Virus record (IMG/VR): IMGVR_UViG_3300046804_004208
Location: 1 to 64,000 of that record
DNA: 64,000 nt
Direction: 5' to 3' (one strand)
Source: a virus
The translations under genes were made by a program, and so were the position numbers. The notes beneath the pieces are model-generated. The model did no database searches, was not told where the DNA came from, and was given only the letters and a program-made list of their open reading frames with translations. Below, piece by piece: positions 1-4,301 of this stretch (position 1 is its first letter; every line of letters begins with the position of its first letter).

Positions 1-27
1 GGCAAATCCTACTGGGTGGCAGTTTAG
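1..27 (+). CDS. 3' end of an upstream cassette ORF (partial, GKSYWVAV*)
   Basis: Open frame ending TAG at 25-27, followed at once by the array's intergenic unit, implying the array continues left of the window. Confidence 0.45.
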   Translation, partial: GKSYWVAV

Positions 28-35
28 ATCCGCCA

Positions 36-88
36 GGGGGGCACACCCGCCCCCCGTGCTACAGTACCCAAGCAACCGACACCCCACC
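36..88 (+). promoter_or_regulatory. Type-B cassette promoter (extended -10 TGcTACAGT) with upstream GC hairpin
   Basis: GGGGGGC-ACACCC-GCCCCCC hairpin 36-55; TG-n-TACAGT 57-65; A/C-rich leader to ATG 89. Confidence 0.65.
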
Positions 89-259
89 ATGACCGACCGC
101 ACCCTCCGCAATGCCATCGCTGCCATGCTCTTCTGCTCTGTGAGCATCGTGGCAGGTGCCTGGACCCTGAAGGCCGCGGCAACCGTTGACGCCCACCAGG
201 AGCGCATGGCAGACGCCCTCTGCACCGCCGACCCTGCCTGGTGTGGTGAGCGCCGCTGA
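89..259 (+). CDS. Small protein with N-terminal hydrophobic/transmembrane helix (cassette 1)
   Basis: ATG at 89 after repeat leader; AIAAMLFCSVSIVAGAWTL hydrophobic stretch. Confidence 0.7.
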   Translation: MTDRTLRNAIAAMLFCSVSIVAGAWTLKAAATVDAHQERMADALCTADPAWCGERR

Positions 260-261
260 CC

Positions 262-296
262 TGCTACAGTACCCAAGCAACCGACACCCCACACCC
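262..296 (+). promoter_or_regulatory. Type-B cassette promoter (extended -10 TGcTACAGT)
   Basis: Near-identical copy of 57-88. Confidence 0.65.
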
Positions 297-476
297 ATGG
301 CGATCTTTTCACAGTGCTCCGACCTGCAGACCCGCGAAACCATGTGGGTCGCTCGCAAGACAGACGACGCACCCCAGACCCGCTTCGCTGGACAGATCAA
401 CCCTGCCGAAGGGTACTGGTGGGCAGCACGTTACGCCGAACGCTACGCCGACGACGTGGTGCCCCTGGAGGGTTGA
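297..476 (+). CDS. Hypothetical protein (cassette 2)
   Basis: ATG 297 after repeat leader; stop TGA overlaps the next -35 (TTGACC 473-478). Confidence 0.75.
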   Translation: MAIFSQCSDLQTRETMWVARKTDDAPQTRFAGQINPAEGYWWAARYAERYADDVVPLEG

Positions 477-526
477 CCCCTGCCCCCTGACCCTGTAGAA
501 TTCCAGAGCAAACCGCACCCCACCCC
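473..526 (+). promoter_or_regulatory. Type-A sigma70 promoter TTGACC-17-TAGAAT plus leader
   Basis: -35 at 473-478, -10 at 496-501, exact 17-bp spacer. Confidence 0.85.
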
Positions 527-691
527 ATGCTGGACGGAACCATCGCCACCGCCTTCCACGACCTGACCTCCTTCCAACTGGAGGAGTGGCTGTGGGAAGG
601 CAACCCCACCACCAAGGAGCAGCGGGCCATCCTGAAGGAACTGGCAACCCGCCAGCAGCGCCTGGAAGCAATCGCTGACCTGCTCTGGTGA
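527..691 (+). CDS. Hypothetical 54-aa protein (cassette 3; not in ORF track)
   Basis: MLDGTIATAFHDLTSFQLEEWLWEGNPTTKEQRAILKELATRQQRLEAIADLLW*; ATG 25 nt after the -10 like the other cassettes. Confidence 0.75.
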   Translation: MLDGTIATAFHDLTSFQLEEWLWEGNPTTKEQRAILKELATRQQRLEAIADLLW

Positions 692-698
692 CCCCTAC

Positions 699-760
699 GG
701 GGCACCTTGACGGGTGCCCCACCACCCTGTAGAATTCCAGAGCAAACCGCCACGGACCTG
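699..760 (+). promoter_or_regulatory. Type-A promoter TTGACG-17-TAGAAT; -35 is the loop of a perfect 8-bp stem
   Basis: GGGGCACC-TTGACG-GGTGCCCC 699-720; TAGAAT 730-735. Confidence 0.9.
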
Positions 761-967
761 ATGACCACCCTGACCCTGACCGTGACCCCTGCCATCGCTG
801 ATGAGATCTGCCACGCTCTGATCGACGCTGGTATCCGCTGGGGCGAACTGGAGACTGCTGCCCGCAACGGTGAGAACGGCATGGCACCCAGCGCCTGCCG
901 CAGCATCCGTGAGAGCGCCTTTGCCATCCGCACCATGATCCGTGAGCAGATGGCAGAGCAGATCTGA
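761..967 (+). CDS. Hypothetical protein (cassette 4)
   Basis: ATG 761, 25 nt after the -10. Confidence 0.75.
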   Translation: MTTLTLTVTPAIADEICHALIDAGIRWGELETAARNGENGMAPSACRSIRESAFAIRTMIREQMAEQI

Positions 968-974
968 CCCCCCA

Positions 975-1034
975 GGGGGGTTGGCAAACGACCCCCCATC
1001 CTGTAGAATTCCAGAGCAAACCGCAACGCACCCG
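975..1034 (+). promoter_or_regulatory. Type-A promoter TTGGCA-17-TAGAAT in hairpin
   Basis: GGGGGGT 975-981 / ACCCCCC 991-997; -35 at 981-986; -10 at 1004-1009. Confidence 0.85.
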
Positions 1035-1259
1035 ATGACCACCGCCCTCCGCGACTGCCTCAACGTGTACGCCCCTGGCACCACCTTCTCCGACATCCTG
1101 TGGGATTGCTCTCACCCTGCCGACGACACCATCGCCTGGCACATCGCCCTGGAGTCTGCAGAGATGCACTCCGCCCTCTACGACTTCCGCAAGGACTACG
1201 GGCACCTGCAGGGTGAGCGCATCGACTGCGGTGAGTTCCTCTCCTGGCTGGGGTACTGA
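1035..1259 (+). CDS. Hypothetical acidic protein (cassette 5)
   Basis: ATG 1035, 25 nt after the -10. Confidence 0.75.
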   Translation: MTTALRDCLNVYAPGTTFSDILWDCSHPADDTIAWHIALESAEMHSALYDFRKDYGHLQGERIDCGEFLSWLGY

Positions 1260-1267
1260 TCCGCTGA

Positions 1268-1330
1268 GGGGGTGGGTTGACCCCTGCCCCCCGACCCTGT
1301 AGAATTCCAGAGCAAACCGCAACGCACCCG
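1268..1330 (+). promoter_or_regulatory. Type-A promoter TTGACC-17-TAGAAT in hairpin
   Basis: GGGGGTGGG-TTGACC-CCTGCCCCC (two G.T pairs); -10 at 1300-1305. Confidence 0.9.
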
Positions 1331-1528
1331 ATGAGCAGCACCTGCCTCTACCGCATCGAACTGGATCGCGCCGATGGCACCACTGCCGTAGAGTTCCGCC
1401 GCCGCCGTCGTCCCACGACTCCTAAAGGGTTCGATCGCCAGCACAACAACGTGGTCAACTCTATCCTTGAGGAGATCCGCTACTACCGCATCGAAGGGTG
1501 GAAGCGCCTGACCGTGACGCGGGTGTGA
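1331..1528 (+). CDS. Hypothetical basic protein (cassette 6)
   Basis: ATG 1331; Arg-rich (FRRRRRP). Confidence 0.75.
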   Translation: MSSTCLYRIELDRADGTTAVEFRRRRRPTTPKGFDRQHNNVVNSILEEIRYYRIEGWKRLTVTRV

Positions 1529-1533
1529 GGGGG

Positions 1534-1587
1534 TCGACCCTCGGCACCCGACCCTGTAGAATTCCAGAGCAAACCGCAACGCACCCG
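1534..1587 (+). promoter_or_regulatory. Type-A promoter TCGACC-17-TAGAAT
   Basis: -35 at 1534-1539, -10 at 1557-1562; imperfect hairpin 1521-1549 overlapping the upstream stop. Confidence 0.8.
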
Positions 1588-1890
1588 ATGCCTGCCACCA
1601 CCGCCACCGCCTTCACCCCCGACCAGATGCTCTACCTGGGGCACTCCGTGTTCAGCAGCGCCATGCGCTCCTGGGCACTGGTGATGAACAACGACAACGA
1701 TGCCGAACTGCTGGTGCTGTTCAACAGCAGCGACACCGTGTACCGCTACGCCTTCCGCTCCTGGGAGGATGCCCGCAACTGGGATGAGATCCGCAAGCAG
1801 GGTGAGGATGAGGATGCCGACCGCATCTCCTGGGGGCGCTGCTTCCACCGCTTCTTGAGCGAAGGGGCGATCCTGCCCATCGCCGCCTGA
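1588..1890 (+). CDS. KTSC-domain-like protein (cassette 7)
   Basis: SSAMRS...ELLVLFNSSDTVYRY...SWGRCFHRFL matches the KTSC pattern SSxIxS..LxVxFxxGxxYxY..SxGxxFN. Confidence 0.6.
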   Translation: MPATTATAFTPDQMLYLGHSVFSSAMRSWALVMNNDNDAELLVLFNSSDTVYRYAFRSWEDARNWDEIRKQGEDEDADRISWGRCFHRFLSEGAILPIAA

Positions 1891-1897
1891 ACCCTAC

Positions 1898-1959
1898 GGG
1901 GCACCTTGACGGGTGCCCCCTGACCCTGTAGAATTCCAGAGCAAACCGCAACGCACCCG
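1898..1959 (+). promoter_or_regulatory. Type-A promoter TTGACG-17-TAGAAT; -35 in loop of perfect 8-bp stem
   Basis: GGGGCACC-TTGACG-GGTGCCCC 1898-1919, identical to 699-720; -10 at 1929-1934. Confidence 0.9.
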
Positions 1960-2220
1960 ATGCTCACCTCCATCATCCGCACCGCGATCCGCACCCGCCT
2001 CATCAACGACGGCCCGATGACCTGCAGCGATCTGGTTCGCGCCATGGGCATGGACCCCCGCCGCCATAAGGGCACCATCCACGCCGTGATGGTTGACCTG
2101 GAGAAGGCAGGCATCCTGGATTCCACCCGCAGCGACAACGGCAAGCGTGACCTCTGGTTCATCGTGCCCACCGCGATCCGCAAGCGTGATCGCCTTGCCG
2201 CCGCCATGGCAGGCATCTGA
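1960..2220 (+). CDS. Winged helix-turn-helix putative DNA-binding protein (cassette 8)
   Basis: IRTRLINDGPMTCSDLVRAMG...TIHAVMVDLEKAGILDS...DLWFI is a typical wHTH helix/wing pattern. Confidence 0.65.
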   Translation: MLTSIIRTAIRTRLINDGPMTCSDLVRAMGMDPRRHKGTIHAVMVDLEKAGILDSTRSDNGKRDLWFIVPTAIRKRDRLAAAMAGI

Positions 2221-2226
2221 TCTGCT

Positions 2227-2291
2227 GGGGGTGGGTTGACCCCTGCCCCCCGACCCTGTAGAATTCCAGAGCACACCACCCCCATACGAGA
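2227..2291 (+). promoter_or_regulatory. Type-A promoter TTGACC-17-TAGAAT in hairpin
   Basis: Near-identical to 1268-1314; -35 at 2236-2241, -10 at 2259-2264. Confidence 0.9.
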
Positions 2292-2588
2292 ATGGACTTC
2301 ACCATCACCCGCCTGCCCCGCCGTGGTCCCCGCAAGGGTGAGACTCTGACCCGCAACGCTCAGCACGGTGCTGGATCCGCCGTGGGTTCTGTTCGTGATT
2401 CTGACCTGCCCGCTGGTGGATTCTCCCATGCCGTTGGCGCTGGCAAGGGACTGACCATCACCCGCGTCAGTGGGTTGGGGCGTCAGTGGGTTGGCGATAA
2501 AGACGCCAACGCCTCCCGCTTCGCCGCCCAGGCGAAGGCAGACCGAATCGCTGCCGCCCGTGACCGCCTGGCAGAGCGGCAGGGGTGA
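2292..2588 (+). CDS. Hypothetical Gly/Ala/Arg-rich protein (cassette 9)
   Basis: ATG 27 nt after the -10; basic; internal xTITRx repeat. Confidence 0.7.
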   Translation: MDFTITRLPRRGPRKGETLTRNAQHGAGSAVGSVRDSDLPAGGFSHAVGAGKGLTITRVSGLGRQWVGDKDANASRFAAQAKADRIAAARDRLAERQG

Positions 2589-2835
2589 CAGTTCGTGGGG
2601 CGGCACACCCGCCCCTCATTCGTTCGTGAAGCAGCAGTTAATTGTATAACGTTATCGTTATGGCGGCGGGCCGTGTTTATAAAATCGATGGGTCCCACCA
2701 GTCTACAAAGTGTTACGAAAGGCATCGATATAATACCTTAAAAACAAAAAAATCCGGAATGAAAGAAAAGACTTAAAAGTTCATTGAAAATACACAAATC
2801 ATATATAATTTCAAAGTAAAAAATATATTAAAAAA

Positions 2836-3009
2836 ATGAAAAAAAAATCCGGAGATGAAAAACGCCCTATACAGGTTGATACAGTTAGTGGTGAGTATTA
2901 TGTTACCATTCCCGAGTGGATTATGAATGAATTATCTTGGTATGAGGATACTGAGATTAATTTTTTAATTGAAAATGGAGATGTTATTATATCAGAGTGT
3001 AATGAATAA
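2836..3009 (+). CDS. AbrB/MazE/SpoVT-like small DNA-binding protein (not in ORF track)
   Basis: MKKKSGDEKRPIQVDTVSGEYYVTIPEWIMNELSWYEDTEINFLIENGDVIISECNE*; 'VTIPxxxxxxLxWxxxxxIxFxxxxGxVII' is the AbrB swapped-hairpin signature. Confidence 0.7.
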   Translation: MKKKSGDEKRPIQVDTVSGEYYVTIPEWIMNELSWYEDTEINFLIENGDVIISECNE

Positions 3010-3184
3010 TAAGATAATGAAAGTTTATAACATATATGCAAAGAACAAGTGTTTATATCATCTTATAAGTGAACAAGAGTTTGAAATTACATGGAAAACA
3101 CTCAAAAATATGGTCGGTTTAATGAAGACCGACTACAGTGTTGAGGACCTTTCATATGAAGAGGCGTTCATTGACATTGTATAG
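3002..3184 (+). CDS. Hypothetical phage protein
   Basis: ORF track 2969..3184; ATG 3002 overlapping the upstream gene end is the likelier start. Confidence 0.6.
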   Translation: MNNKIMKVYNIYAKNKCLYHLISEQEFEITWKTLKNMVGLMKTDYSVEDLSYEEAFIDIV

Positions 3185-3199
3185 ATAATATTGTATGAT
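3171..3199 (+). promoter_or_regulatory. sigma70 (early) promoter
   Basis: TTGACA 3171-3176, 17 bp, TATGAT 3194-3199. Confidence 0.75.
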
Positions 3200-3221
3200 A
3201 TGATTGTAACTACTTTCAATT

Positions 3222-3977
3222 ATGGCAAAAGGATTTACTGTTAAGGCAAAGGCACCACTTACAAGCCAAGAAATGGAATGGGATTATGACAAAGCAAGAG
3301 AAATTCTTAAAGGTAAAAGTATAGTATTTTGTCTTCCTGGTAGAGGAGTTTCCTATACTTATCTTAAGAATTTTGTACAGCTATGTTTTGATCTTGTACA
3401 ATCTGGTGCAAGTATTCAAATATCTCAAGATTATTCTTCCATGGTTAACTTTGCAAGATGCAAATGCCTGGGAGCAAATGTTCTAAGGGGACCAGATCAA
3501 TTACCATGGGATGGTAAATTAAACTATGATTATCAGTTATGGATTGATAGTGATATTGTGTTTACAACTGAAAAGTTTTTACAACTAGTTTTAATGGATA
3601 AAGACATTGCAGCTGGTTGGTATTGTACAGAAGATGGTATGACATCTTCTGTTGCTCATTGGTTAGAAGAAGATGATTTTAGAACAAATGGTGGAGTGAT
3701 GAATCATGAGACCATTGAAACAATGAAAAATCGTAGAAAACCATTTACAGTTGATTATACTGGATTTGGTTGGTTACTAATTAAACATGGAGTTTTTGAG
3801 CATCCAGAAATGAAGTATCCATGGTTTGCACCAAAAATGCAAGTTTTTGAATCTGGAGATGTTCAAGATATGTGTGGAGAGGATGTAAGTTTCTGTCTGG
3901 ATGCAAAGGAAGCGGGATTTGAAATTTGGTGCGATCCTCGTATTAGAGTTGGTCACGAGAAAACAAGAATTATTTGA
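3222..3977 (+). CDS. GT-A fold (family 2-like) glycosyltransferase
   Basis: LWIDSD DxD motif, TGFGWLLIK, GEDVSFC, RVGHEK. Confidence 0.8.
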   Translation: MAKGFTVKAKAPLTSQEMEWDYDKAREILKGKSIVFCLPGRGVSYTYLKNFVQLCFDLVQSGASIQISQDYSSMVNFARCKCLGANVLRGPDQLPWDGKLNYDYQLWIDSDIVFTTEKFLQLVLMDKDIAAGWYCTEDGMTSSVAHWLEEDDFRTNGGVMNHETIETMKNRRKPFTVDYTGFGWLLIKHGVFEHPEMKYPWFAPKMQVFESGDVQDMCGEDVSFCLDAKEAGFEIWCDPRIRVGHEKTRII

Positions 3978-4145
3978 ATGTCTGACAATACACGATACAA
4001 TGTTTTTTGCAAAGGTCGGAAAATTTATTCCGATCTAGATCAAAATTCGTTTTTTGATGTAATGGAGGATCTGGCACAGGAATTTTATGAAAATGGAACA
4101 CCAGATCCTTCTGATATAACCACAGAAATTATTGGAGAAAATTAA
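3978..4145 (+). CDS. Hypothetical 55-aa acidic protein (not in ORF track)
   Basis: MSDNTRYNVFCKGRKIY...TEIIGEN*, abutting both neighbours. Confidence 0.7.
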   Translation: MSDNTRYNVFCKGRKIYSDLDQNSFFDVMEDLAQEFYENGTPDPSDITTEIIGEN

Positions 4146-4301
4146 ATGGCAGTAAAAGCAAAAGGTGGACTGAATAAGCACTCGTCTTATATTCCTGGTC
4201 CTCCTAAAAAATCTCGTCAAGGAGATGGTAATGGGACCAAATATGCAGCATCTTCTCGTAATAAAGCACGTAAAGCATATAGGGGTCAAGGAAAAGGATG
4301 A
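4146..4301 (+). CDS. Small basic 51-aa protein (not in ORF track)
   Basis: MAVKAKGG...KARKAYRGQGKG*; ATGA overlap with next gene. Confidence 0.7.
   Translation: MAVKAKGGLNKHSSYIPGPPKKSRQGDGNGTKYAASSRNKARKAYRGQGKG

Follow-up and report, generated by a model that had tools for sequence, protein, structure and literature searches.

The closest described counterparts of the elements considered here are the promoter-early/stem-loop repeats (PeSLs) of the T4-like phages RB49/phi1, T4/PST and KVP40/nt-1 (Arbiol 2010, PMC2839356; Comeau 2014, PMC4122927). PeSL stems are built from polyG...polyC arms with G-T pairs and fall into five subclasses, one of which overlaps the -35 (PMC2839356). One PeSL stem-loop blocked lacZ expression as well as rrnB T1, and mini-circles arose by recombination between PeSL units (PMC2839356; PMC4122927); the motifs themselves vary between phage groups (PMC4122927). 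The concept so far comprises two papers and a few phage pairs. A study of S-PM2 sought PeSLs in cyanophage and concluded that they were too few to account for gene gain (PMC4503421), and our literature search for later PeSL work, or for PeSLs of cyanophages, found nothing beyond that study. We describe here a family of promoter/hairpin units in the first 64 kb (positions 1 to 64,000, hereafter the window) of a viral contig of 103,861 bases, IMG/VR record IMGVR_UViG_3300046804_004208.

We consider it probable that these units are cyanophage promoter/stem-loop cassettes of the PeSL type, with a hairpin that serves the upstream gene, a promoter that serves the next gene and repeats that mediate shuffling. 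Each ~70-nt element would on this account combine two separable functions. The first would be a G-run/C-run RNA hairpin in the transcript of the upstream ORFan, acting as a terminator, an attenuator or a protector of the 3' end; the second would be a sigma70-type early promoter (TTGACN, 17 bp, TAGAAT) with a conserved leader that lacks a Shine-Dalgarno sequence, for the next gene. The -35 would fall within the hairpin loop as a consequence of the overlap between the two elements, and the hairpin would not be there to present it.

Architecture of the units and the place of the hairpin

The repeat family (D1) comprises seven copies of ~81 nt, one before each of seven open reading frames (ORFs), and its 19-nt core occurs seven times against an expectation of 0.02. 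Read in order, a unit runs from the stop codon through 5-9 nt, a G-rich arm, TTGACN, a C-rich arm and a linker ending in CCTG to TAGAAT, an A/C-rich leader and the ATG. A promoter scan recovered all seven units, with the 17-bp spacer and TAGAAT, among 13 sites where 1.7 were expected; at the level of sequence, the seven putative -35 boxes take the form TTGACN and also TTGGCA and TCGACC. The leader contains no GGAG-type motif and no Shine-Dalgarno sequence, and the stretch upstream of the -35 is occupied by the G-rich stem arm. The CCTG directly before the -10, 7-8 nt past the stem, is at least 90% conserved and lies outside the sigma70 consensus.

The units all lie on the + strand. Units 2 (699-760) and 6 (1898-1959) share the perfect arms GGGGCACC and GGTGCCCC around TTGACG: in the former, the hairpin spans 699-720 (arms 699-706 and 713-720, -35 at 707-712), with TAGAAT at 730-735 and the leader running to the ATG at 761 (-19.0 kcal/mol, z -3.2), and in the latter it spans 1898-1919 (arms 1898-1905 and 1912-1919, -35 at 1906-1911), followed by the -10 at 1929-1934 and the leader (-18.6 kcal/mol, z -3.95). 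Units 4 (1268-1330) and 7 (2227-2291) share the arms GGGGGTGGG and CCTGCCCCC around TTGACC, each with two tandem G.T (G.U in RNA) pairs; unit 4 has its hairpin at 1268-1291 (arms 1268-1276 and 1283-1291, -35 at 1277-1282), its -10 at 1300-1305 and the leader (-17.8 kcal/mol as RNA), and unit 7 has its hairpin at 2227-2250 (arms 2227-2235 and 2242-2250, -35 at 2236-2241), its -10 at 2259-2264 and a variant leader (-17.2 kcal/mol). Unit 3 (975-1034) carries the hairpin GGGGGGT / TGGCAAACG / ACCCCCC at 975-997, its -35 (TTGGCA, 981-986) lying partly in the stem, with the -10 at 1004-1009 and the leader behind (-19.7 kcal/mol). Unit 5 (1520-1587) has an imperfect hairpin of 12 pairs at 1520-1550 around TCGACC (1534-1539), the -10 at 1557-1562 and the leader (-22.9 kcal/mol, z -3.0). 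The weakest stem is that of unit 1 (467-526), GGAGGG/CCTGCC around TTGACC (473-478), with TAGAAT at 496-501 and the leader; it folds at only -8.5 kcal/mol, and the stop codon of the upstream gene falls within its -35. The 5' arm of unit 1 pairs perfectly with CCCTCC in locus L044, and the unit looks like a chimera.

As RNA, six of the seven units give fold energies of -17.2 to -22.9 kcal/mol (z -1.7 to -3.95) with the -35 in or at the loop, values to be read beside those of single-unit shuffles, whose folds are themselves fairly stable (mean -10 to -15 kcal/mol). A terminator scan of the window called none of the hairpins and found no T-run after the stems, whose tails read ACCACCCTG or CGACCCTG. 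An Rfam covariance-model search over window positions 1-3300 returned no match up to E = 1. Reading of the sequence, together with the promoter and terminator scans, bears out the hairpins, positions, 17-bp spacer and missing U-tract listed in a preliminary description of this stretch, which had overlooked the unit at 467-501, the two further hairpins described below (36-55 and 2597-2615) and the membership of the units in the PeSL class.

Which gene does the hairpin belong to? As read from the sequence, it is located 5-9 nt past the stop codon. The predicted start site of its own promoter lies beyond it, and it would therefore be present only in RNA initiated further upstream. Pairs of units that have a common upstream gene tail and different downstream genes carry an identical hairpin in 50% of cases, against 2.8% for pairs with only the downstream gene in common and a background of 2.2%. 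Hairpins with non-promoter loops (CACG, AACC, ACACCC) also exist; in locus L020, the stem GGGGCACC/GGTGCCCC encloses CACG instead of TTGACG. In the window, the hairpin GGGGGGC / ACACCC / GCCCCCC (36-55, + strand), whose loop holds no -35, follows a gene cut by the contig end (RNA fold -19.9 kcal/mol, z -2.8), and a closing hairpin GGGGCGG / CACAC / CCGCCCC (2597-2615, + strand; -15.6 kcal/mol, z -3.3) stands after the last cassette gene with a T-rich tail and no promoter behind it. The closing hairpin is conserved in locus L028 and coincides in the window with a sharp drop in GC. Some -35 boxes, for their part, have no good stem, mostly those with the upstream stop codon inside TTGA. Hairpin and -35 are therefore separable, and packing seems to account for their overlap. 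There is no need to suppose that the hairpin "displays" the -35, since the two elements also occur apart, and a hairpin with a -35 in its loop is neither a new principle nor a new mode of promoter display. The suggestion that the hairpin serves the 3' end of the upstream message fares better: the position past the stop codon, inheritance with the upstream gene and occurrence both without a -35 and after the last gene all point to it.

There are two ways in which the overlap could nevertheless matter in itself. In Synechococcus elongatus, canonical terminators end only 22% of transcription units, and a TG motif (5'-TG-3') marks 3' ends that have no U-tract (PMC12642595); a relation of the invariant CCTG, 7-8 nt past the stem, to this motif is a lead only. 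It is conceivable, if unlikely, that the overlap is a matter of design, the 5' end of a cassette holding the -10 and leader and its 3' end a hairpin with the next gene's -35 as loop. Exchange in the shared block would then rebuild a full promoter and a 3' end, and hairpin plus CCTG would form a compact non-canonical terminator for a Rho-less host. We regard as quite unlikely a functional coupling, in which upstream RNA polymerase would be stopped or paused in the spacer, 7-9 nt past the stem at CCTG, the promoters would be insulated and the loop position of the -35 would itself be selected. Such coupling would fit the conservation (at least 90%) of a CCTG that the sigma70 consensus does not call for, the 5'-TG-3' that marks U-tract-less 3' ends in S. 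elongatus (PMC12642595), and the gap of 9-10 nt that separates the stem from the -10, both in the main class and in most hairpins with -35-less loops; this constant distance may, however, reflect shared ancestry, the hairpin at 36-55 ends just 4 nt before its -10, and stem-loops occupy five different positions in RB49 and phi1 (PMC2839356).

Different cassette genes share the C-terminal motif (E)FLxWLGY-stop (for example at window 1230-1259); its last codons are TAC TGA where a hairpin follows, and TAT TGA where the stop forms part of the -35 TTGACC. A classical case of a terminator overlapping a promoter is found further along the contig, in AT-rich backbone at ~68,190-68,260 (L054 ~4190-4260), where a canonical terminator with a long hairpin and a T7 run has a TTGACG -35 in its 3' arm, its T-run in the promoter spacer and TATAAT next.

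Selection on stem pairing

To the window units we added homologous units from ~100 other viral and metagenome contigs; a profile search gave 73 unique units, and the addition of metagenome loci brought the set to 112. In 64% of the 73 units the -35 is enclosed by an uninterrupted stem of at least 8 bp, against 2% of 1339 control positions in the same GC-rich genes, and 81 of the 112 have at least six Watson-Crick pairs around the -35. Scored in a fixed nine-pair register over a MAFFT alignment (A1) of the 73 units, covariation reaches 0.270, compared with 0.139 +/- 0.014 for shuffles (0/500 score as high) and a maximum of 0.156 for registers with slid partners. Cells changed on both sides number 69, against 24 +/- 4.6. 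The four inner stem pairs covary through combinations such as CACC/GGTG, CAGG/CCTG, AGGG/CCCT, TGGG/CCAC and CGGG/CCGC, and distinct arm pairs number 41.

RNAalifold, run unaided on the MAFFT alignment, placed the -35 hexamer in the loop and predicted three inner pairs, kept with both sides changed in 23, 14 and 16 sequences. It recovers no more than these three, because loop lengths vary between units and leave the outer pairs out of register, and each unit was additionally scored in its own register. The stem is retained even where its 5' arm is coding sequence. That the hairpins are under selection for RNA structure is well supported. The preliminary description had read the changing stem sequences as a sign of selection on structure and had named covariation among homologues as one check: covariation is found across homologous units, in the fixed-register score as in RNAalifold, the 41 arm pairs speak for the same conclusion, and what RNAalifold did not recover is the outer pairs.

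It is accordingly very unlikely that the stems are a functionless by-product, whether as palindromic remnants of recombination or template switching or through G-runs and C-runs that happen to pair in 64% GC DNA. The fair folding of single-unit shuffles, and the lack of a good stem in a quarter of units, are what speaks for such an origin; against it stand a ~30-fold enrichment of stems over positions of the same composition, compensatory variation, tolerance of G.U and not of A.C, and preservation of the stem where its 5' arm codes.

The mismatches also tell on which molecule the pairing is kept. With G.U and A.C given equal penalty in the stem count, the non-Watson-Crick positions in stems comprise 43 G.U and 2 A.C, which means that only the sense strand maintains its pairing. 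When folded as DNA, stems that bear G.T pairs are indistinguishable from shuffles on either strand (z -0.9 to -1.3); unit 4, for example, then folds at only -6.9 kcal/mol (z -1.2). Selection of the pairing in sense-strand RNA is thereby supported, in agreement with the earlier argument that tolerance of G.T favours an RNA-level role.

The same asymmetry bears on two explanations that act on double-stranded DNA. A supercoiling-dependent cruciform, extruded from the inverted repeat such that the -35 leaves the duplex and the promoter is switched off, had been put forward for this locus and draws on the perfect 8-bp inverted repeats that flank the -35 at 699-720 and 1898-1919, both strands of which fold at ~-10 kcal/mol as DNA. 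We find it highly improbable: a cruciform needs pairing on both strands, while only the sense strand keeps it (43 G.U versus 2 A.C), the G.T stems behave like shuffles as DNA, the arms measure a mere 7-9 bp around loops of 4-12 nt, and hairpins are present without any promoter. Similarly doubtful is an operator, in which a protein that binds DNA as a dimer, such as the small winged-helix-like product of the cassette ORF at 1960-2220, would occupy the GGGG...CCCC inverted repeat across the -35. The outer GGGG/CCCC is indeed conserved and overlaps the -35, but a protein site does not require compensatory change at four inner positions, the excess of G.U over A.C bespeaks pairing on one strand, loop length varies from 4 to 12 nt, and the cassette protein at 1960-2220 has no Pfam match.

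Cassette order and exchange

To follow the genes between the units, we clustered the ORFs that follow them into 21 families and compared their orders over 43 loci. The window reads B-K-A-M-N-C-G, where other loci read B-M-K-A-C-D (L013), B-K-A-C-D (L019), A-N-C-G (L028), B-A-D (L021) and P-I-L-C-H-D (L026). Cassettes shared by the window and L028 are 91-94% identical, and the two loci differ by a one-gene indel of 257 bp (cassette M inserted, with a unit at each edge) and by a swap of the hairpin after A; the upstream neighbour of A differs as far as the linker before the -10. Blocks common to units start or end in the invariant stretch of linker, -10 and leader. In some weak stems, the coding 5' arm GGAGGG is joined to four different 3' arms, and these stems look like chimeras. 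Cassettes are 88-98% identical between phages whose adjoining backbone is only 66-78% identical, which points to exchange of cassettes between phages.

Under the PeSL-type reading, the identical ~40-nt block of linker, -10 and leader at every junction would be the substrate of homologous recombination, and recombination there would insert, delete and swap cassettes within and between phages. The preliminary description had also suggested a folded single-stranded site in the manner of integron attC sites, cut and joined by a site-specific recombinase; this is scarcely credible, for although the one-gene cassette array with imperfect hairpins at cassette ends, the variable cassette order and the chimeric hairpins (one 5' arm with several 3' arms) recall such a system, no tyrosine recombinase (PF00589) was matched in the contig or in three relatives 83-100% complete by a search that was positive in 14/14 control genomes, each cassette is preceded by a promoter instead of being read from a common one, conserved core sites and bulged bases are lacking, and shared blocks end in the identical -10/leader stretch, as expected of homologous exchange, rather than at a fixed point of the hairpin.

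Several points weigh against the PeSL-type reading. The stem is weak or missing in about a quarter of units; units are linked by duplication and exchange, and covariation counts are not independent events; and the association of hairpin and upstream gene could do no more than mirror the position of the longest homology block. As to function, the terminator scan found no U-tract behind the stems, hence they are not canonical intrinsic terminators, and cyanobacteria are without Rho, with hairpin-only 3' ends not the norm in S. elongatus (PMC12642595). To terminate, to pause or only to stabilise are therefore all candidate roles of the hairpin.

Genomic setting and comparison with known systems

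The units lie in an island. GC content is 63-64% over window positions 1-2620 and 25-40% over the remainder, which encodes T4-like virion proteins (a baseplate wedge protein of the backbone is matched at 2.8e-203); the contig DNA matches the T4-like Synechococcus myoviruses S-SKS1, S-SRM01 and S-T4. Nine small cassette ORFs of 54-100 aa occupy the + strand of the island at 89-259, 297-476, 527-691, 761-967, 1035-1259, 1331-1528, 1588-1890, 1960-2220 and 2292-2588. Their GC content at third codon positions (GC3) is 0.80, against 0.11 for backbone genes; a Pfam search of the nine found no match, and their PHROGs matches are to families of unknown function only. We take window 1-2620 to be the hyperplastic early-gene region of a T4-like cyanomyovirus, built of one-gene cassettes.

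An 18-nt core of the unit recurs in 42 IMG/VR loci and 58 metagenome loci, and many of the contigs that bear it have the GC-rich island internally, with AT-rich DNA on both sides. The downstream flank is identical in kind across nearly all loci (in locus L049, the next conserved gene has 74% protein identity to the window gene at 3222-3977), and the island keeps a fixed position upstream of the baseplate genes. Near-complete relatives have one island apiece and carry psbA, and are therefore cyanophages. The island remains at 55-65% GC even where phage backbones vary from ~28% to 45%. A GC-rich donor phage for the cassettes was not found, the longer contigs of the metagenome scan all being islands within AT-rich DNA.

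Two artefactual or foreign origins were considered and rejected. An assembly chimera at the GC jump is ruled out by the many independent contigs, the internal position of the island and the recurrence of the same downstream genes. Host-derived DNA is likewise set aside: 596 Gb of prokaryote DNA (185,579 genomes) yielded just four occurrences of the 18-nt core, at chance level, and none of the four is cyanobacterial.

In the phage collection searched, the unit core is absent from cultured phages, and no isolate carries a unit. Among cultured relatives a single cassette gene is matched, at 69%, in the marine Cyanophage S-RIM32, which has a homologue of cassette gene M (window 1331-1528, phrog_5495). 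The S-RIM32 homologue (L056 ~3950-4010) lies where GC is locally raised, 0.53 versus 0.39, and a canonical terminator with a T7 run stands in front of it. Where the window has its island, the cultured reservoir phage S-SRM01 of Synechococcus (MW015081, L115 1750-3100) has small ORFs parted by GGGG...CCCC hairpins with T-rich tails, a recurring GTTACAC motif and no -35 in the loops; its intergenic units look like a family different from that of the window. The sequence past the closing hairpin (ATTCGTTCGTG ... CAGTTAATT ... ATAACGTTATCGTTATGGCGGCGGGCCG; window 2616-2735) recurs in L028 and, in part, also in S-SRM01 (L115 ~3022-3255), and the 3' border of the island is therefore an old, fixed site.

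The first two cassette ORFs are preceded by a second putative promoter type, TGcTACAGT (an extended -10 with no -35), again with an A/C-rich leader. One copy (57-88, + strand) stands between the hairpin at 36-55 and ORF 89-259 and forms, with 262-292, the exact 31-nt repeat of family D4; the other (262-296, + strand) stands before ORF 297-476 with no hairpin ahead. This promoter/leader type, TGcTACAGTACCCAAGCAACC, recurs in more than 20 loci (L009, L021, L028, L044 and others) and often follows a conserved gene tail, not a hairpin.

Several known systems share part of this organisation. Lambdoid morons are likewise single accessory genes flanked by their own promoter and hairpin, but they are scattered and have no conserved flanking repeat, whereas here a repeated unit bounds every gene of a tandem array. 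Integron attC cassettes offer a tandem one-gene array with imperfect hairpins at the ends and variable order; unlike integrons, the present array has no integrase, no attI or Pc, a promoter before every cassette, no conserved attC core or extrahelical bases, and junctions that fit homologous exchange. The repetitive extragenic palindromic (REP)-type 3' stabilisers of E. coli (PMC12642595) resemble the units in being GC-rich hairpins just past the stop codon, without a U-tract, that could stop 3'-5' exonucleases; REP elements, however, neither join a promoter nor form the borders of mobile cassettes, and S. elongatus transcripts are reported to carry such stabilising hairpins only rarely (PMC12642595). 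The units may be compact, hairpin-only gene boundaries evolved in cyanobacteria, where the ending of transcripts is largely unexplained (PMC12642595), and are candidate insulators or terminators for cyanobacterial engineering.

The fullest correspondence is with PeSLs. In both cases, repeated units stand between small ORFans in a hyperplastic region of a T4-like myovirus; each unit has a sigma70-like -35, N17 and -10 (predicted here); the stem is of polyG...polyC type with G-T pairs and overlaps the -35, as in one described PeSL subclass; and units lie at single-ORF insertions, deletions and swaps between related phages. The differences begin with the host, which here is cyanobacterial and has no Rho. 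The window units are without an AT-rich upstream region or a Shine-Dalgarno sequence, both of which are descriptive features of the enterobacterial PeSL examples, and their stem-loop hardly varies in position, the -35 falling in the loop, where RB49/phi1 show five positions. Cassettes with a GC3 of 0.80 in a backbone of 0.11, and 88-98% cassette identity across phages with ~70% backbone identity, also set the present case apart. With more than 100 natural variants on ~100 contigs, the unit family makes the PeSL model testable by comparison of sequences, through conservation of structure, movement of the hairpin with the upstream gene and exchange in the shared -10/leader.

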